This document shows, in pieces, positions 1 to 6,769 of a stretch of 6,769 bases of DNA. The stretch lies in IMG/VR virus record IMGVR_UViG_2617270964_000002; one strand, given 5' to 3'. Source of the stretch: a virus. Taxonomy: Duplodnaviria; Heunggongvirae; Uroviricota; Caudoviricetes. The stretch's first letter is position 1, and the number at the start of each line of letters is the position of its first letter. Below the pieces are notes generated by a model that made no database searches, was not told where the DNA came from, and saw only the letters and a program-made list of their open reading frames with translations. A program made the translations under genes and the position numbers.

Positions 1-1098
1 ATGCTGAAGCAGTTCCGTACTGACCTTTCCGGATTTAACGCGCAGTGCCATGGCGGCAGTGCTGCAGTTATACCGTGGATTTGTGGCGACACGACGTATT
101 ACTGGAAAAACACATACGGCACACAGTATGACTCCGTCTACGGCGCGTACAAAAACAGGGAGAGCGACAACGTTTTCTTTGTGCCGTTCATGACCGACGG
201 TAACGGCAACAACACGCCCACCAACTTACCGGCAGAAGACCCGGATATTGCTGATGCAGGTTATTACGGCGCGCAATCCCGTAGTAATGGTAATTGGGTA
301 TCGTCAAATCGTCCGACACATTTCAGTTCATGGGCGCGCAGGGGCATTATTTCGGATCGCCTGGCAACCGCTATTCTGAACGCAGTTGGTCGAACCAGCG
401 CCTTCATCAGCGGTACCGCACCGGAGATTAAACCCTCGCCCGGCGGCGACACGCCATCGGGGCCGTCTGATGGTGACACATCCGTTCGTACAGTCTCCCT
501 GCTGCCGACAGCCGGAGAGGCTGCTGCGCAGGGCTGGACCATCACCGGCGGCAGTGTTGCGCTGGAAGATGGTGTGTTTAAGGTTACCAAGCAGAGCAAT
601 AAAACCTGGTCCCTGATGCATCCGGTGGATGACGCAGTCTCCCTGCTGACACGGGGTGGCAGACTGAGCTGTAAGTTTCGACTGTCAGGCGCACTGACCA
701 ACAACCAGTTCGGTCTGGGAATTTATCTGTATACCGATGTAGCGTTACCTGACGTCGTGGTGATGACCGGGACTGGTAACCCGTTCCTGATGTCGTTCTT
801 CACCCAGACCACAGACGGCAAACTGAATCTGATGCATCACAAGAAAGCCGGAAACACAAAGTTGGGCGAGTTCGGGAATTACAGTAACGACTGGCAGACG
901 CTGGAGCTGGTGTTCACCGCCGGCAGTGCCACGGTTACTCCGAAACTGAATGGAGTGGCTGGCCCGGCATTCCAGGTCATAAAAGACAGTCTGACACTGG
1001 GGCTGAATGCGCTGACGTTAACTGATATCACTAAAAATGCCACGTACGGCGTCGATATCGGCAGCCTGGTGCTGGAAATCAATAATCCCGCAGCATAA
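1..1098 (+). CDS. Hypothetical protein, unassigned; possible accessory (moron) gene. N-terminal Tyr/Gly/Asn-rich region, a Pro/Gly/Ser/Asp linker (approx. aa 140-165, SGTAPEIKPSPGGDTPSGPSDGDTS), and a C-terminal region of about 190 aa that looks beta-rich. True start may lie upstream of the window.
   Basis: Uninterrupted 365-codon ORF ending TAA at 1096-1098, only 23 bp before the R start, so co-oriented and probably co-transcribed. Codon usage and GC resemble neighbouring genes. I recognise no family; the ORF begins exactly at base 1, so the N-terminus is uncertain. Confidence 0.55.
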   Translation: MLKQFRTDLSGFNAQCHGGSAAVIPWICGDTTYYWKNTYGTQYDSVYGAYKNRESDNVFFVPFMTDGNGNNTPTNLPAEDPDIADAGYYGAQSRSNGNWVSSNRPTHFSSWARRGIISDRLATAILNAVGRTSAFISGTAPEIKPSPGGDTPSGPSDGDTSVRTVSLLPTAGEAAAQGWTITGGSVALEDGVFKVTKQSNKTWSLMHPVDDAVSLLTRGGRLSCKFRLSGALTNNQFGLGIYLYTDVALPDVVVMTGTGNPFLMSFFTQTTDGKLNLMHHKKAGNTKLGEFGNYSNDWQTLELVFTAGSATVTPKLNGVAGPAFQVIKDSLTLGLNALTLTDITKNATYGVDIGSLVLEINNPAA

Positions 1099-1121
1099 GG
1101 AAGAGCAGGAGAGCAAAACAG

Positions 1122-1589
1122 ATGCTTAAGACAAACAGTCTGCGAGAGTCCATGCTTCATGGGTGTCGGTGGTGCCAGGCTAATCCCGAGAAATTCACCA
1201 TTTTCGTGGAGAGCGGCAACATTGAAACGACCGGGGAAGCGCCCTCGTTTGTTTACCGCTATCAGATGGTGATGTTTGTCATGGATTACGCCGGAGAGCT
1301 GGACGACCTCACGCTGCCGCTGCTGGCGTGGTTATCCGAAAATCAGCCACAGTTGTTGCTCAACCCTGAGCGTAATCAGGACATCAAATTCTCCGCCGTT
1401 ATCAATGACGATGACAGCGCCGATCTCCTGTTTACGCTCCCCCTGCGGGAACGCGTTCGCGTCACGCGCAGCAGTCAGGGCACACCGCAGGCAGAACACC
1501 TGCCGGAGCCAAAACCCCGCCTGCCATCTTCCGAAGGCGACTGGTCGCATATATTCCAGGATGTGACGTGGGGTGAAAGCGATGGATAA
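1122..1589 (+). CDS. R: Tail completion protein, P2 gpR-like
   Basis: 155-aa ORF; ATG at 1122 preceded by AGGAGAG (1107-1113). Translation (MLKTNSLRE...PLLAWLSENQPQLL...) resembles remembered P2 gpR in length and motifs, and it sits directly upstream of the S homologue. Confidence 0.8.
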   Translation: MLKTNSLRESMLHGCRWCQANPEKFTIFVESGNIETTGEAPSFVYRYQMVMFVMDYAGELDDLTLPLLAWLSENQPQLLLNPERNQDIKFSAVINDDDSADLLFTLPLRERVRVTRSSQGTPQAEHLPEPKPRLPSSEGDWSHIFQDVTWGESDG

Positions 1590-2217
1590 GGCATTCACCC
1601 GCGTGGATGAAACCTTTGAGACCATCCGCGACAGCCTGAATCAGCAGGCCATCAATAACATCGCCAGAAAGCTGGCACAGGATTTACGTCGCGCCCAGCA
1701 GGCACGTATCCGGTCACAGAAAGCGCCGGACGGGACCGCATGGACACCACGCAGACGCCGCGTAACCCGGATACAGGAGCGCATTCGCTTTATCTGGAAT
1801 AACGAAGCACGCACGCTGAAAAACTGGCATCACGACACGGGGAAATACGGGCGAACCATTACCGGGTGGGATGAGGATAAAAACAGCATCCGCACGTTTT
1901 ACCGGGATGACATCGACCGTTTTCTGGAAATACGCACCCGGCGCATCAACCAGGACAGCACAAAGCGCGTCCCCATGTTCGTAAAACTGCGCACCGCCCG
2001 CTACCTGAAAGCCCGTGCAGATGCCTCCGGTGTGACGGTGGGTTACAGCGGCGTGGCCGCACGTATTGCACGCGTTCATCAGTTCGGTGAGCGCGATCAG
2101 GTTGCGCCGGGCATTTTCACCGATTACCCGGTACGTGAGCTGCTGGGTATCAGCCAGGCAGATGAGCGCCTGATTTATAACACGGTGCTGGGCCGGATTG
2201 CGGAGGCTGTACGGTGA
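1582..2217 (+). CDS. S: Tail completion / virion morphogenesis protein, P2 gpS-like
   Basis: ORF in frame from GTG 1573; I prefer ATG 1582 (MDKAFTRVDE...), which overlaps the R stop (1587-1589). Translation has motifs I recall from gpS-family proteins (PRRRRV, KLRTARYL, ARIARVHQFG). Start codon choice is uncertain by 9 nt. Confidence 0.8.
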   Translation: MDKAFTRVDETFETIRDSLNQQAINNIARKLAQDLRRAQQARIRSQKAPDGTAWTPRRRRVTRIQERIRFIWNNEARTLKNWHHDTGKYGRTITGWDEDKNSIRTFYRDDIDRFLEIRTRRINQDSTKRVPMFVKLRTARYLKARADASGVTVGYSGVAARIARVHQFGERDQVAPGIFTDYPVRELLGISQADERLIYNTVLGRIAEAVR

Positions 2218-2795
2218 GCGCAGAACTCATGCGACTGCTGAGCAACATCATCCGCACCGGGATCATCTCTGAAGTTGATGAGAAGTCCTGGCGCGTGCGC
2301 GTTCGCAGCGGCGAACTGGAAACAGGCTGGTTGCGCTGGAACACCACGCGCGCGGGAGCCTTCAATGTGTGGCTGCCGCCATCACCAGGCGAACAGGTGG
2401 TAATTGTCTGCATTGGCGGCAACCCGGAAACCGCCATGATAATTGGCAGCCTGTGGAGTGATGCCAGTCCGGCCCCCGGCAAAAGCCTGAAAGAAATCGT
2501 GGTCAGCGCGCCGGATGGCGCGGTGTTCCGCTACGACGCAGACGCTGGCGCACTGAGCGCCAGCGGCATGAAAACAGCCACCCTGCAGGCATCCGTCAGC
2601 GTGACACTGGATACGCCCGTCGTGGAATGCACAAACCTTCTGAGAACAGCGACGCTTGACGTCACAAAAGGGGGAAAGATGAGCGGCAATATCACGCACA
2701 GCGGCGGCAATTTCACCTCAAACGGTATCACAGTGCATACGCATAAACACGGTGGCGTTAAAGGTGGCAGCGATTCGACAGGAGGCCCGCAGTGA
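2214..2795 (+). CDS. V: Baseplate assembly protein V (central spike), P2 gpV-like
   Basis: GTG start at 2214 overlaps the S stop TGA (2215-2217) as GTGA; GGAGG lies 8 nt upstream. Translation (IIRTGIISEVD..., GEQVVIVCIGG..., VECTNLL..., VHTHKHGG) parallels remembered P2 gpV, including the C-terminal His-x-His-x-His motif. Confidence 0.88.
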   Translation: MSAELMRLLSNIIRTGIISEVDEKSWRVRVRSGELETGWLRWNTTRAGAFNVWLPPSPGEQVVIVCIGGNPETAMIIGSLWSDASPAPGKSLKEIVVSAPDGAVFRYDADAGALSASGMKTATLQASVSVTLDTPVVECTNLLRTATLDVTKGGKMSGNITHSGGNFTSNGITVHTHKHGGVKGGSDSTGGPQ

Positions 2796-3142
2796 CAACC
2801 CGCTACACAGGAATGAATCCGGACGGGACGGGAAACCTGAACGATACGGAGCACCTGAAACAGTCAGTCAGGGACATCCTGACCACCCCGCTGGCCAGCC
2901 GGGTTATGCGACGGGAATATGGCAGCCTTGTACCTGATTTGATTGACGAACCCATGAATAACACCACGCGTCTGCAATGCATGAGTGCTGCCGTGATTGC
3001 GCTGACACGATGGGAACCCCGCATTGCCCTGGACGCCATCGACGTTGTCTGGAAGGCAGGAGGCCGCGCCGGGGTGACGCTGTCGGGCACTGTCATGCAG
3101 ACCATGCAGAATGTTGAGTTAACCATCACGCTGAGGGAGTAA
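2792..3142 (+). CDS. W: Baseplate wedge protein W (GPW/gp25 family, related to T4 gp25 and T6SS TssE)
   Basis: GTG start at 2792 overlaps the V stop (2793-2795); AGGAGG at 2779-2784. N-terminus MTTRYTGMN... closely matches my memory of P2 gpW (MTARYLGMN...); internal RVMRREYGS motif; 116 aa. Confidence 0.9.
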   Translation: MTTRYTGMNPDGTGNLNDTEHLKQSVRDILTTPLASRVMRREYGSLVPDLIDEPMNNTTRLQCMSAAVIALTRWEPRIALDAIDVVWKAGGRAGVTLSGTVMQTMQNVELTITLRE

Positions 3143-3145
3143 ATC

Positions 3146-4042
3146 ATGCCTGCTGTTGACCTTTCCCAGTTACCGGAACCCGCCATCATCGCGGAGCCTG
3201 ATTTTGAGGCAATTCTGGCTGACACAAAGGCCATGATGATTGCGTCCTATCCTGCCGAACAGCGTGAAGCCGTCTCCGCCGCGCTGGAGCTGGAATCGGA
3301 ACCCCTGAACGTTATCGCTCAAACCATGTCTTTTCGTGAAATGCTGTTACGCCAGCGGGTTAACGAGGGCGCACGCGCCTGCATGTTAAGCCACGGTTCA
3401 GGGACAAATCTGGACAACCTCGCGGGCAATATGAACACAAAGCGCCTGGTTATCACTCCGGCAACGGATACCACCGACGCGGTGATGGAGAGCGACACCT
3501 CGCTGAGATTGCGGGCGCAGCGGGCGTACGACGGCCTGAGTGTTGCTGGCCCGTCAGGTGCATACGAGTATTTTGCCCGCAGCGCCAGCGGTCTGGTGCG
3601 CGATGCGCGGGCTATCAGTCCGTCTCCGGCCTGTGTGACGGTTTCCATCCTGTCCACTGAAGGAGACGGCACAGCAACGGAGGCGTTGCTTAATACCGTT
3701 CGCGCCGTTCTGAATGCAGAGGATACCCGCCCGGTGGCCGACCGCCTTACTGTACAGAGCGCCAGAATCGTGACATGGCGGCTGAATGCAAAACTGTACT
3801 TTTACCCCGGCCCGGAATCCGAACCTATTCTGGCCGCGGCGGAATCGTCATTCAGGAAGTGGCTGGCTGAACAGGGGCTTATCGGTCAGGACGTGGCGTT
3901 GTCCGCCATTGCTGCCGCACTTCATGTGCACGGCGTGCAACGCGTGGAGATAATCGAACCCACACAGAATATGGCCATCAGCGACATACAGGCGGCGCGC
4001 TGTGAGTCATTTACCATCAGCGAAGGTGGGCGCAATGAGTAA
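3146..4042 (+). CDS. J: Baseplate assembly protein J (T4 gp6 / TssF-like)
   Basis: ATG 3146 with GGGAG 7 nt upstream; 298 aa. Translation (MPAVDLSQLPEP..., ESEPL..., RPVADRLTVQSA..., HVHGVQRVE) tracks remembered P2 gpJ along its length. Confidence 0.9.
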   Translation: MPAVDLSQLPEPAIIAEPDFEAILADTKAMMIASYPAEQREAVSAALELESEPLNVIAQTMSFREMLLRQRVNEGARACMLSHGSGTNLDNLAGNMNTKRLVITPATDTTDAVMESDTSLRLRAQRAYDGLSVAGPSGAYEYFARSASGLVRDARAISPSPACVTVSILSTEGDGTATEALLNTVRAVLNAEDTRPVADRLTVQSARIVTWRLNAKLYFYPGPESEPILAAAESSFRKWLAEQGLIGQDVALSAIAAALHVHGVQRVEIIEPTQNMAISDIQAARCESFTISEGGRNE

Positions 4043-4643
4043 TTCACTGTTACCGCCATCAGCCAGCAGTTTCATGCGTTGTGCCGAAGCCGTCGGAACA
4101 CGCATTACAGACATTCCGGTAGACCTCAATACGCTGTGGTCGCCGGATACCTGCCCGGTGCATCTGCTGCCTTATCTCGCCTGGGCGTTTTCCGTTGACC
4201 GCTGGGATCGCAACTGGCCGGAAGAGACAAAGCGACAGGTAATTCGTGATGCATGGCTGATACACCGACACAAAGGGACCATCAGCGCACTGCGAAGAGC
4301 CGTGGAGCCTCTCGGCTACCTGATTGAAGTAAAGGAGTGGTGGCAACTCAACGAGGAGCCAGGAACATTTCGCATTGTTGTCGGAGTACTTGATCAGGGC
4401 ATCACCGATGAAATGTATCAGGAACTTGAGCGCCTTGTTGCGGATGCAAAACCAGTAAGTCGCCATCTGACGGGGCTGGCGATCAGCCTGAGTGTGAACG
4501 GAAAGATTTTCGTTGGTACGGGATGCTATCACGGCGATGCCCTGACGGTTTATCCCTACACCCCGGAGTCCATTATTGTCGAAGGGGATTATTTCCCTGC
4601 CCCGGCCATTCATTTAATTGATAATCTGAGAGTAAACGCATGA
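4035..4643 (+). CDS. I: Baseplate/tail protein I (TssG-like)
   Basis: ORF opens at 4002 but the likely start is ATG 4035 (MSNSLLP...), overlapping the J stop at 4040-4042. The motif LLPYLAWAFSVDRWD and HRHKGTISALRR match the gpI family as I remember it. Confidence 0.88.
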   Translation: MSNSLLPPSASSFMRCAEAVGTRITDIPVDLNTLWSPDTCPVHLLPYLAWAFSVDRWDRNWPEETKRQVIRDAWLIHRHKGTISALRRAVEPLGYLIEVKEWWQLNEEPGTFRIVVGVLDQGITDEMYQELERLVADAKPVSRHLTGLAISLSVNGKIFVGTGCYHGDALTVYPYTPESIIVEGDYFPAPAIHLIDNLRVNA

Positions 4644-6238
4644 CAGTGAAATACTACGCCATTCTGACTAATCAGGGCGCAGCACGACTGGCTAACGCGA
4701 CGATGCTCGGCAGTAAGCTGAATCTGACGCAAATGGCCGTTGGTGATGCAAATGGTGTGTTACCAACACCAGACCCTGCACAAACAAAACTGATTAACCA
4801 GAAACGCATTGCACCGCTGAATCTTCTGAGTGTTGACCCTAACAATCAGAGCCAGATTATTGCGGAGCAAATCATCCCTGAAAACGAGGGAGGATTCTGG
4901 ATCCGTGAGATTGGTCTTTATGATGATGAAGGTGTACTCATTGCGGTGGCAAACTGCCCGGAAACGTACAAACCGCAGTTGCAGGAAGGCAGTGGACGCA
5001 CCCAGACTATCCGCATGATTCTGGTTGTCACGAACACCGAAGCCATCACGCTGAAAATCGACCCGTCTGTGGTTCTGGCAACCCGCAAATATGTGGATGA
5101 TAAAATCTCAGAGCACGAACAGTCACGACGTCACCCGGACGCCTCGCTGACCGCAAAAGGTTTTACTCAGTTAAGCAGTGCAATTAACAGTGAATCAGAA
5201 ACACTGGCCGCAACACCGAAAGCAGTTAAGGCTGCATATGACCTGGCTGACGGGAAATATACCGCCCAGAACGCCACCACAACACAAAAAGGGATTGTTC
5301 AGCTCAGTAGCGCCACGAACAGCACGTCTGAAACGCTGGCAGCGACACCAAAAGCTGTTAAGGCGGTAATGGATGAAACGAGCAAGAAAGCACCATTAAA
5401 CAGCCCGGCACTGACCGGAACGCCAACAACACCAACAGCGCCACAGGGGACTAATAGTACCCAGATCGCAAGCACGGCTTTCGTTATGGCCGCGATTGCC
5501 GCACTTGTAGATTCGTCACCTGATGCACTGAACACGCTGAACGAACTGGCTGCGGCGCTGGGCAATGACCCGAATTTTGCGACCACCATGACTAACGCGC
5601 TTGCGGGTAAGCAACCGAAGGATGCCACCCTGACGGCGCTGGCGGAGCTTGCTACATCAGCAGATAAACTCCCATATTTTACAGGAGCAGATCGTGCCGC
5701 GTTAACCGCGTTGACAAGTGTTGGACGTGCCATTCTTGGTAAAACCAGCACTCAGGGAGTTCTTGATTACCTTCATTTGGAAGAAACGGTAAAACAGGCC
5801 GCTGGAGCGATGCAGAAAAGTGCAAACGGTGGTGATATTCAGAATGTGGCCGCTTTCAGAAATGCCCTTCAGCTTGGTACGGCGGCACTGGCCTCTATGG
5901 GAGTGGGAAAAAATCAGGTATTGAGTGCATCAGATTTCTCTTTCTTCGCCGGTGGAAATGGCTATTTGTATATTCCTTGTCTTGCAACCACAGATAATCC
6001 GGTAAAGATAATGCTGCAGTGGGGAACCATACGGACACGCGGCGGAGAGAATAATATCTACAACCTGCCCTATGCATTTCCAACCGCAGGTCTGTGGGCT
6101 ATGGGATGCAGAGCAGCGAATGGCTACAGCCAGTCAATGAATGTCAGTATAGAAAATCGGTCTCAAATCAGGATCCAAAACTGGGCGCCAGCAGGGGCGG
6201 TAGAAGATTGCTGTTTCTTCGCTGTGGGGTATTTATGA
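4640..6238 (+). CDS. H: Tail fiber protein H: conserved P2 gpH-like N-terminal shaft (approx. aa 1-375) fused to a shorter, AT-richer C-terminal distal domain
   Basis: ATG 4640 overlaps the I stop as ATGA. 532 aa. N-terminus (MTVKYYAILTNQGAARLA...MAVGD...GGFWIREIGLYDDEGVLIAVAN...) and the repeated LSSA(T/I)NS(T/E)SETLAATPKAVKA motif are hallmarks of P2 H / Mu S-type tail fibers. The C-terminal part of roughly 150 aa has no resemblance I recognise, as expected for a receptor-binding tip. Confidence 0.9.
   Translation: MTVKYYAILTNQGAARLANATMLGSKLNLTQMAVGDANGVLPTPDPAQTKLINQKRIAPLNLLSVDPNNQSQIIAEQIIPENEGGFWIREIGLYDDEGVLIAVANCPETYKPQLQEGSGRTQTIRMILVVTNTEAITLKIDPSVVLATRKYVDDKISEHEQSRRHPDASLTAKGFTQLSSAINSESETLAATPKAVKAAYDLADGKYTAQNATTTQKGIVQLSSATNSTSETLAATPKAVKAVMDETSKKAPLNSPALTGTPTTPTAPQGTNSTQIASTAFVMAAIAALVDSSPDALNTLNELAAALGNDPNFATTMTNALAGKQPKDATLTALAELATSADKLPYFTGADRAALTALTSVGRAILGKTSTQGVLDYLHLEETVKQAAGAMQKSANGGDIQNVAAFRNALQLGTAALASMGVGKNQVLSASDFSFFAGGNGYLYIPCLATTDNPVKIMLQWGTIRTRGGENNIYNLPYAFPTAGLWAMGCRAANGYSQSMNVSIENRSQIRIQNWAPAGAVEDCCFFAVGYL
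5156..5368 (+). repeat. Tandem intragenic repeat inside H: two 27-aa cores (KGFTQLSSAINSESETLAATPKAVKAA and KGIVQLSSATNSTSETLAATPKAVKAV) spaced 132 bp apart
   Basis: Read directly from sequence: cores at 5156-5236 and 5288-5368, 22/27 aa identical, with many synonymous codon differences (e.g. tta agc agt vs ctc agt agc for LSS). Confidence 0.85.
5760..5785. other. Candidate Hin/Gin/Cin/Pin-type invertase crossover site (26 bp imperfect dyad TTCTTGATTACC-TT-CATTTGGAAGAA); speculative
   Basis: TTCTT-N16-AAGAA dyad of the same length and outer sequence as the hix/gix consensus (TTCTTGAAAACC-AA-GGTTTTTGATAA as I recall it). It lies at the point in H where the conserved shaft ends and composition drops. 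The partner site would lie outside the window, so it cannot be confirmed here. Confidence 0.25.
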
Positions 6239-6651
6239 ATAAATTTTATCAGGGTGTTTTTTATCCGGAAGCACTTAAAGATGCCTATGTTTCTGCCGGA
6301 ACGTGGCCGGAACATGCTGCCGATGTGAGTGATGAGGCAATGGCTGTTTATAGCCAGTACCCACCGGAAGGGAAAATGCTGGGAACGGATAATAATGGTT
6401 ATCCTGTGTGGGTTGACATCCCCTCCCTGTCGCCTGAAGAACGAGTTGCCCGGGCTGAGCAAACACGACGTGATTTACGTACGCGGGCGGATTCTGAAAT
6501 AGCCTGGCGACAGGATGCTGTTGACGCGGATATCGCGACGGATGAGGAAACCGCCGCGTTGTCTGAGTGGAAGAAGTACCGGGTACTGTTAATGCGGGTT
6601 GATACAGCAAAACCCGTATGGCCTACACCTCCGGGGGAACAGGCCAGTTAA
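6235..6651 (+). CDS. tfa: Tail fiber assembly protein (Tfa; P2 gpG / Mu U-like chaperone)
   Basis: ATG 6235 overlaps the H stop (6236-6238) as ATGA; 138 aa. C-terminus carries the Tfa signature (DEETAALSEWKKYRVLLMRVDTAKPVWPTPP), comparable to the ...W..Y.VL..RVD...P.WP ending of remembered gpG. The listed ORF start at 6094 is an out-of-frame overlap with H and is not used. Confidence 0.8.
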   Translation: MNKFYQGVFYPEALKDAYVSAGTWPEHAADVSDEAMAVYSQYPPEGKMLGTDNNGYPVWVDIPSLSPEERVARAEQTRRDLRTRADSEIAWRQDAVDADIATDEETAALSEWKKYRVLLMRVDTAKPVWPTPPGEQAS

Positions 6652-6769
6652 TATGCTCAGGGTTGGTTGTCACATCAACCGCCTTAACTTCATTCTTATA
6701 CGCCAGCCATGCCGACAGTTTAGCTCTGTTGGTGTCGCTGATTTCATCCAGCATTAGTTCCGTTCGCCA
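6623..6769 (-). CDS. Partial CDS (C-terminal 48 aa plus stop) of a second, inverted tail fiber assembly protein (tfa'); N-terminus lies beyond the right edge
   Basis: Only one - strand frame is open across 6769..6626, stop TAG at 6625-6623. Translation ...LMLDEISDTNRAKLSAWLAYKNEVKAVDVTTNPEHINWPVPPEV* has the same Tfa C-terminal signature (DE..., L.AW..YK, VD, WP.PP) as the + strand tfa. The two genes converge and overlap by 29 bp (6623-6651). Confidence 0.6.
   Translation of the reverse strand, partial: WRTELMLDEISDTNRAKLSAWLAYKNEVKAVDVTTNPEHINWPVPPEV

Follow-up and report, generated by a model that had tools for sequence, protein, structure and literature searches.

Results

Gene content of the window

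We analysed a 6,769-nucleotide (nt) stretch of viral DNA (hereafter the window; IMG/VR record IMGVR_UViG_2617270964_000002, Caudoviricetes) that carries a block of phage tail genes whose stop and start codons overlap or nearly touch. The eight genes of the block lie on one strand in the order of phage P2, and all of them match the corresponding Pfam families (E 1e-13 to 1e-62). These matches back the names R, S, V, W, J, I, H and tfa, which an earlier sequence-only reading had given to them. The genes and the lengths of their products in amino acids (aa) are:

1122-1589, + strand: R, tail completion protein, 155 aa (Pfam P2_Phage_GpR, 7e-39; same coordinates in the RefSeq/PGAP annotation of relatives)
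1582-2217, + strand: S, virion morphogenesis / tail completion protein, 211 aa (Pfam Phage_tail_S)
2214-2795, + strand: V, baseplate spike, 193 aa, GTG start (Pfam Phage_base_V, Phage_spike and Apex; N-termini of homologues)
2792-3142, + strand: W, gp25-like baseplate wedge protein, 116 aa, GTG start (Pfam GPW_gp25)
3146-4042, + strand: J, baseplate wedge protein, 298 aa (Pfam Baseplate_J)
4035-4643, + strand: I, baseplate/tail protein, 202 aa (Pfam Tail_P2_I, 3e-53, aligned from residue 6)
4640-6238, + strand: H, tail fibre, 532 aa (Pfam Phage_tail_fib at 1-150, Phage_fiber_2, Gp53-like_C)
6235-6651, + strand: tfa, tail-fibre assembly protein, 138 aa (Pfam Caudo_TAP, aligned from residue 7)

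From about 1164 to about 5100-5680, the window shares 93-97% nt identity with Escherichia phages P88 (Xuanwuvirus) and 500465-2 (Gemsvirus) and with many E. coli prophages. The closest chromosomal match is E. coli TOE17 (L003), with 99.1% identity over window positions 1-5818, and J is 54% identical to that of P2-group phages. The window comes from the late operon of a P88-like E. coli prophage (Peduoviridae, P2-like) and covers its genes for tail completion, baseplate and tail fibre. An Rfam scan of the window at gathering thresholds gave no match.

Seven consecutive tight junctions from R to tfa

The junction coordinates given by the sequence-only reading were rechecked against the sequence and the table of open reading frames (ORFs), and all of them were exact:

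R/S: R stop TAA 1587-1589, S start ATG 1582; 8-nt overlap ATGGATAA at 1582-1589
S/V: S stop TGA 2215-2217, V start GTG 2214; GTGA at 2214-2217
V/W: V stop TGA 2793-2795, W start GTG 2792; GTGA at 2792-2795
W/J: W stop TAA 3140-3142, J start ATG 3146; gap of 3 nt
J/I: J stop TAA 4040-4042, I start ATG 4035; 8-nt overlap ATGAGTAA at 4035-4042
I/H: I stop TGA 4641-4643, H start ATG 4640; ATGA at 4640-4643
H/tfa: H stop TGA 6236-6238, tfa start ATG 6235; ATGA at 6235-6238

With overlaps written as negative numbers, the stop/start spacings from R to tfa are -8, -4, -4, +3, -8, -4 and -4, so that all seven fall within -8 to +6. The RefSeq record of 500465-2 annotates exactly the same starts and overlaps, and the PGAP annotation of TOE17 agrees with them everywhere except at V.

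How unusual such a run is depends on the base rate. In E. coli, 707 of 2,987 co-directional gene pairs (24%) are spaced from -8 to +6 (PMC10666635), and at this rate seven consecutive junctions would have a probability of about 5e-5. In P88, 22 of the 42 co-directional pairs (52%) are within the same range, and the probability of the run rises to about 0.01. Given this high base rate, the chain is normal for this type of genome. It has long been annotated that stop and start codons overlap in the morphogenetic operons of phages, P2 with its R/S, V/W and J/I among them.

Start codons and Shine-Dalgarno sequences

The free energy (dG, kcal/mol) of the duplex between the anti-Shine-Dalgarno sequence and the Shine-Dalgarno (SD) region was calculated for each start:

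R, ATG 1122: -7.4
S, ATG 1582: -10.7
V, GTG 2214: -9.6
W, GTG 2792: -10.3
J, ATG 3146: -8.0
I, ATG 4035: -7.8
H, ATG 4640: -3.2
tfa, ATG 6235: -6.1

The mean of the eight starts was -7.9 kcal/mol, compared with -4.0 for all 320 NTG triplets of the plus strand (resampling P ~1e-4). Seven of the eight had values between -6.1 and -10.7, and no SD in the block is weaker than that of H. The Pfam or BLASTP alignments of S, I, H and tfa extend to the first few residues. A hairpin, ACGUGGGGUGAA...UUCACCCGCGU (1566-1604), pairs the SD of S with S codons 5-8, and the 80-nt segment around it has a z score of -0.75, which is not significant.

The two GTG starts decide whether the chain is continuous:

2202-2217, + strand: S/V junction, SD GGAGG 2202-2206, 7-nt spacer, GTGA 2214-2217; dG -9.6
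2781-2795, + strand: V/W junction, SD GGAGG 2781-2785, 6-nt spacer, GTGA 2792-2795; dG -10.3

If V and/or W started instead at the downstream in-frame ATG 2229 or ATG 2813, which the sequence-only reading had named as the alternative starts, both GTGA overlaps would be lost and the chain would be broken. PGAP does place the V start of TOE17 at the ATG equivalent to 2229 (L003 11229-11795), five codons short; ATG is generally a stronger start codon than GTG, and the GGTGA upstream of ATG 2229 gives a dG of -7.8 kcal/mol. However, this GGTGA sits 12 nt from ATG 2229 and contains the GTG 2214 itself. The Met encoded at 2229 is not conserved, being Leu, Leu, Ile and Ala in the Kluyvera, Trabulsiella and Klebsiella Kp4879-3 relatives and in P2, respectively. 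A Salmonella relative and one viral contig carry ATG (as ATGA) at the position equivalent to 2214, and this G>A change is synonymous in S (CGG>CGA). In the 58%-identical Kluyvera relative, V reads ATG followed by agt-gcc-gaa-ctg, compared with agc-gca-gaa-ctc in the window, and both encode S-A-E-L. The codons between 2214 and 2229 have thus undergone three synonymous changes and no replacement, which argues that they are translated.

The evidence for W is similar. P2 and the Trabulsiella and Klebsiella Kp4879-3 relatives carry ATG at the position equivalent to 2792, where P2 W begins, and the N-terminus MT-x-RY-x-GMN is conserved, whereas ATG 2813 is essentially without an SD (dG -0.5 to -3.7). 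RefSeq phage records also use GTG for both genes. The GGAGG motifs 7 and 6 nt upstream and the ATG codons at equivalent positions in relatives therefore bear out the GTG starts, and the downstream alternatives fail on both SD and homologue comparison. By this comparison, the assignment of V to GTG 2214 and W to GTG 2792 stands, and a downstream start for either gene is very improbable. The annotation conflict at V is settled in favour of GTG 2214 rather than ATG 2229; because the comparative evidence supports the former, the PGAP call in TOE17 is probably wrong.

Conservation of the junctions

Homologues were located by tblastn, and a script assigned their starts by homology and SD strength and measured the junctions. 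Scanning with J gave 80 loci among viral contigs, all 98-100% identical, and 6 loci among genome contigs. These loci were used for stability within the lineage only, and diverged relatives came from a tblastn comparison across annotated phages. The H/G distances that the script gave were unreliable and left unused, since tfa is too diverse for tblastn mapping.

Among the 80 near-identical viral contigs, most junctions were nearly invariant. The spacing was -8 for R/S in 64/64, -4 for S/V in 65/68 (GTG in 64, ATG in 1), -4 with GTG for V/W in 74/75, +3 for W/J in 80/80 and -8 for J/I in 79/79. The I/H spacing varied even among these relatives (+2 in 39, -4 in 24 and +10 in 11). P88, 500465-2 and the matching prophages have the same R/S, S/V, V/W, W/J and J/I junctions as the window, and RefSeq gives their V and W GTG starts, whereas I/H is +2 in P88 and -4 here.

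The same overlap classes were found at larger distances. Comparison with the P2 annotation, which the sequence-only reading had proposed as a check, showed R/S at -8, V/W at -4 and J/I at -8 in both, and W/J nearly the same (+4 in P2, +3 here). P2 differs from the window in using ATG for both V and W and in its I/H (+10) and H/G (+3) spacings, both of which are -4 in the window. In Ralstonia phage RS-AB1, Klebsiella phage ST437-OXA245phi4.1, Yersinia phage YenM_42.18, Pseudomonas phage Dobby and Mannheimia phage PHL101, whose J proteins are 43-54% identical to that of the window, V/W, W/J and J/I all lie within -14 to +5. W/J ranges from -14 to +4 in diverged relatives, and the -8 overlap of J/I, with the octamer ATG-A-R-T-R-R, occurs in 9 of the 11 lineages listed. 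Judged from these comparisons, the R/S, V/W and J/I links are old and conserved, and the I/H and H/tfa links are labile. In the RefSeq record of P88, gene I is made to begin 39 nt after the ATG of the conserved -8 overlap.

The I/H junction of the window (4618-4655, tgagagtaaacgcATGacagtgaaatac) is close to that of Yersinia phage vB_YenM_42.18, whose J is only 52% identical. Since this version resembles that of such a distant phage, it suggests a mosaic boundary at the 3' end of I and the 5' end of H. The S proteins also differ in length (150 aa in P2, 211 aa here). BLASTP aligns both of their ends and needs about 59 gap positions, which points to internal insertions in S of the P88 lineage.

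Fusion of S to V and the search for internal signals

P2 has four late promoters with the consensus TGT-N12-ACA, which serve the operons PQ, ONMLKRS, VWJIHG and FI-FII-EE'TUD (PMC3931495). From R to G/tfa, the pO (O N M L X Y K lysA lysB lysC R S) and pV (V W J I H G) operons of P2 have the same gene order and Pfam families as the window, and an Ogr-type activator is found in both lineages. The major difference lies between S and V. P2 has 940 nt there, with the pO terminator, orf30 and the pV activator site, whereas the window has the GTGA overlap. All of the non-P88-like relatives examined have 0.8-3.9 kb between S and V, often with a reverse-strand moron. Fused S and V (-4, -1 or +4) are confined to the P88-like group and to the relatives closer to it, in Kluyvera, Trabulsiella and Klebsiella Kp4879-3 (J identity 61-69%).

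The sequence-only reading had noted no obvious terminator or Ogr-type promoter inside the block, and this is supported as far as the letters allow. The separate pO/pV organisation of P2, with a terminator and an Ogr-dependent promoter between S and V, was not found in the window. Terminator-like sites in the window were not in excess (6 against 6.9 expected from shuffles). Exact TGT-N12-ACA was absent from the window as well, but this negative is uninformative because the probe failed its positive control: it also misses the pP/pO intergenic region of a related prophage, and the annotated sites of P2 itself are imperfect. We replaced it with a dyad of this lineage, GTTGT-N12-AGAAC, built from the two divergent regions of TOE17 in which late promoters are expected. 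TOE17 has three exact copies of it, one between P and O, one between the sheath gene and D and one within the tape-measure gene, and P88 has it in the same three places; by our own estimate, about 0.05-0.07 exact copies would be expected by chance:

TOE17 (L003): 3314-3335, 23071-23092 and 18641-18662
P88 (L005): 14214, 33253 and 28823

The dyad thus finds the expected late promoters elsewhere, and the window contains no exact copy of it. The third exact copy, inside the tape-measure gene, is conserved between TOE17 and P88. Two one-mismatch copies were found in the window (4078 and 6558; about 0.4 expected by chance, again our own estimate). A sigma-70-like match, TCGGCA-17-AATAAT (9/12), lies at 1058-1086, in the 3' end of the gene upstream of R and 36 nt before R.

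Because S and V are joined by nothing more than a GTGA and no late-promoter dyad accompanies them, the O and V operons of P2 appear to be fused in the P88-like lineage. A probable late activator of this lineage, judging from its zinc-finger motif, is an ORF of P88 (NC_026014.1, 34476-34733, + strand; 86 aa) that matches the Ogr/Delta family (PF04606, 5e-14) and has the pattern CPLC-N22-CNNLEC. It lies directly after gene D, outside the window, and is unannotated in RefSeq; Pfam scans of the 13 annotated small ORFs of P88 found no Ogr among them.

The esterase-like gene upstream of R

The sequence-only reading had described an unassigned ORF at 1-1098, 23 nt from R, and placed it in the same transcription unit. 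This ORF is not complete. It is the truncated end of an esterase-like gene of 1,881 nt, of which the window holds the 3' 58%:

1-1098, + strand: NanS-p-like moron, 3' 365 codons of a 626-codon gene cut by the window edge, TAA 1096-1098 (Pfam DUF6645)
1099-1121, + strand: 23-nt spacer before R, with SD AGGAG at 1107-1111 (dG -7.4)

The full-length gene in TOE17 (L003 8218-10098) matches Pfam DUF1737, SASA sialate-O-acetylesterase and DUF6645. It shares 85% nt identity with the nanS-p/yjhS-type (SASA) genes of Stx and lambdoid phages, and its post-lysis position is the same as in lambdoid phages. The gene lies between lysC and R in only some P88-like prophages, and P2, P88 and 500465-2 are without it. 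In P88, lysC overlaps R by 14 nt; compared with P88, the 3' end of lysC is remodelled in the esterase-bearing version, and R has diverged over its first 14 codons at the DNA level while the protein there is conserved. By this alignment, the lysC 3' end and the first 14 codons of R were apparently exchanged along with the insertion of the esterase gene.

In TOE17, the tight chain extends upstream of the window (L/X -1, X/holin +2, holin/endolysin -4, endolysin/lysB -4 and lysC/esterase -4, the last an ATGA overlap). The esterase/R spacing of +23 is the only one outside the -8 to +6 class, both in the block and from L to tfa. The 23-nt distance of the sequence-only reading was exact, but its argument for co-transcription from a tight chain does not hold at this junction. 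According to PMC10666635, coupling is almost abolished at a spacing of about 20 nt in E. coli. As the 23-nt gap is in this range of failed reinitiation, translational coupling from the esterase gene to R is not plausible. Co-transcription is plausible, because R is preceded by an SD of its own and there is no terminator between the genes. It is better supported by the ATGA overlap of lysC with the 5' end of the esterase gene, as read from TOE17.

The fibre end and a putative invertible cassette

The 3' end of the block bears the marks of a switchable tail-fibre module:

5761-5786 (~codon 378 of H): putative Hin/Gin/Cin-type crossover site, a 26-bp imperfect dyad TTCTTGATTACC TT CATTTGGAAGAA
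6623-6769, - strand, running off the window: tfa', 3' end of a second, inverted tail-fibre assembly gene (Pfam Caudo_TAP, profile positions 86-131)

The left half-site resembles hixL. Similarity to many relatives stops at 5780-5785. When the window was aligned with TOE17 and E. coli ET846, it matched the constant part of H of TOE17 up to ...GATTACCTT and then the ET846 cassette from TTCATTTGGAAGAA, the switch being exactly at the central TT. From 5786 to 6769, the window is 99.9% identical to the ET846 cassette. There the cassette sits beside the invertase gene and in the opposite state, and the prophage that carries it is an unrelated one whose baseplate is of the gp47/DUF2612 type. The PGAP annotation of ET846 includes the same tfa of 417 nt, with the same 4-nt overlap between fibre tip and tfa. 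The inverted partner site and the recombinase gene are beyond the end of the window and were seen in relatives only. In TOE17, the inverted-repeat arms are at 14769-14785 and 16711-16727 and the recombinase gene at 16792-17391. A DNA invertase gene is present in 500465-2 and P88, both of which have an invertase cassette downstream, as in the window lineage, with other variable parts of H and other tfa genes than the window.

Full alternative sets of fibre tip and tfa are annotated in relatives, in line with the inverted Caudo_TAP fragment here. We take the fibre tip, tfa and inverted tfa' downstream of the crossover site to be a putative invertible cassette. Mu (G/Gin), P1 (C/Cin), e14 (P/Pin) and Salmonella Hin likewise use a 26-bp imperfect dyad as crossover site, which lies in the fibre gene here, and systems of this type share the order of variable fibre C-terminus and tfa followed by inverted tfa', with a serine-recombinase gene beside the cassette in our relatives. 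Unlike in those systems, the window holds the left site and half of the cassette only, inversion here is deduced from the arrangement, and the same cassette is found in the opposite state in the unrelated ET846 prophage. Because of this sharing, the H/tfa link appears to belong to a portable, probably switchable module. P2 has no such invertible cassette. The convergent genes tfa and tfa' overlap by 29 nt (6623-6651), and the same 29-nt overlap is annotated in 500465-2, TOE17 and ET846.

Discussion

Coupling of translation at overlapping stop and start junctions is textbook knowledge. We consider it rather probable that the block from R to tfa is carried on one late transcript, with each start no more than 8 nt from the preceding stop, and that neighbouring genes are linked by reinitiation and/or by recruitment through the SD. 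A long Ogr-activated late transcript would start at the equivalent of the pO promoter, several kb upstream of the window. Ribosomes ending one cistron would reinitiate at the next (termination-reinitiation, TeRe); alternatively, the SD, which for each downstream gene lies inside the 3' end of the upstream gene, may recruit new 30S subunits at the junction. In either way, neighbouring genes would be expressed in proportion to each other.

The geometry, the start codons, the SDs, the conservation of the junctions and the lack of detectable internal signals are direct observations, and from them we infer a single transcript. That translation of the downstream gene depends on that of the upstream gene is plausible from the geometry and from published E. 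coli reporter work. The spacings of -4, -1 and -8 are the three enriched overlap classes, and short overlaps are over-represented between genes for subunits of heteromeric complexes (PMC6728339, PMC10666635). Of 14 native overlapping pairs tested, E. coli contributing 5 and H. volcanii 9, all but one were strictly coupled (13 of 14; PMC6728339). The TeRe pairs of E. coli (Huber et al. 2019, 2023) are likewise co-directional, with -4, -1 or -8 spacing and the SD inside the upstream gene, and often encode subunits of one complex. Those pairs are isolated and experimentally characterised, whereas the window holds a run of at least seven consecutive junctions known from its sequence.

Several points weigh against coupling as a device, and most of them suit another explanation, in which the genes are co-transcribed and initiated independently at each SD, while the overlaps are a by-product of compaction and of stop/start drift (NTGA / NTGNNTRR) and no device for proportional expression. 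Seven of the eight starts have good SDs of their own, with duplexes of -6 to -11 kcal/mol, and independent initiation may be enough for them. The eight 80-nt junction RNAs fold no better than shuffles (z -0.9 to +1.5); no junction has unusual RNA structure, and the form of coupling in which an occluded ribosome-binding site is opened by the upstream ribosome gains no support. The I/H spacing (+2, -4 or +10 in near-identical relatives) and the S/V spacing (-4 to +4 in close lineages, 0.8-3.9 kb elsewhere) mark evolutionarily loose links, and they differ between close relatives without apparent consequence. The 52% of P88 pairs within -8 to +6 include early genes of unrelated function. However, R/S (-8), V/W (-4) and J/I (-8) have kept their overlap class even between lineages with no more than 26-55% protein identity, and compaction by itself would not demand this. 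With an SD of only -3.2 kcal/mol, the weakest of all, H, a major structural protein, is the best candidate for obligatory reinitiation. Together with the strict coupling of the native pairs cited above, these facts make the by-product explanation unlikely in our view, though it retains some weight.

The possible internal promoters also weigh against one coupled block. One is the sigma-70-like match at 1058-1086, upstream of R, and the others are the two dyad copies with one mismatch, at 4078 (4078-4099, inside I) and at 6558. If the site before R or the dyad inside I were used, the block would not be one transcription unit, and internal promoters would drive sub-operons as pV does in P2. P2 and all of the non-P88-like relatives examined have a separate promoter region before V, and the exact dyad in the tape-measure gene shows that intragenic sites exist. 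On the other hand, promoter-like matches in the window are no more frequent than in shuffles (6 against 4.0 +/- 2.0 expected), S/V leaves no non-coding space, no exact dyad is present, and the one-mismatch copies have to be set against the chance expectation of about 0.4. We therefore regard internal promoters as quite improbable.

Even if coupling operates, it can explain less than the sequence-only reading proposed. In P2 tails, the copy numbers of these proteins in the virion are unequal. Coupling alone thus cannot set the stoichiometry. To speak of stoichiometric baseplate assembly is too specific, for only V, W, J and I are baseplate proteins, whereas R and S serve tail completion and H and tfa encode the fibre and its chaperone. 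The S/V link cannot be required for assembly, because P2 expresses S and V from different operons.

A wider reading is possible, and we put it forward tentatively. The P88-like Peduoviridae may have lost the terminator, moron and pV promoter that part S from V in P2, so that L through tfa (~9 kb, 16-17 cistrons) would form one message with at least 13 consecutive reinitiation-competent junctions. It might be part of a longer pO-type late transcript and cover genes for head completion, lysis, tail completion, baseplate and fibre. The chain would perhaps be broken only by the 23-nt gap after the esterase gene, and its last pair, fibre tip and tfa, could be swapped by DNA inversion. Conceivably, H, which is almost without an SD, is strictly dependent on reinitiation from I. 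If this wider reading were true, the message would be a natural test bed for how far ribosome hand-over propagates along an operon.

The finding is mostly at the level of annotation, and the gene packing is ordinary for the P2-like phage family. Besides the start of V, the analysis identifies the unassigned ORF as the truncated gene of a NanS-like esterase, a moron, documents the apparent fusion of the O and V operons in P88-like phages compared with P2, and flags that the H/tfa link lies inside a portable, putatively invertible cassette common to an unrelated prophage.

One further match concerns a public assembly. A 226-kb contig labelled 'Vagococcus sp. WN89Y' (NZ_JBQPOM010000071.1), nominally from a Firmicute, bears an enterobacterial prophage module whose J is 96% identical to that of the window. 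This looks like contamination or mislabelling of the assembly.

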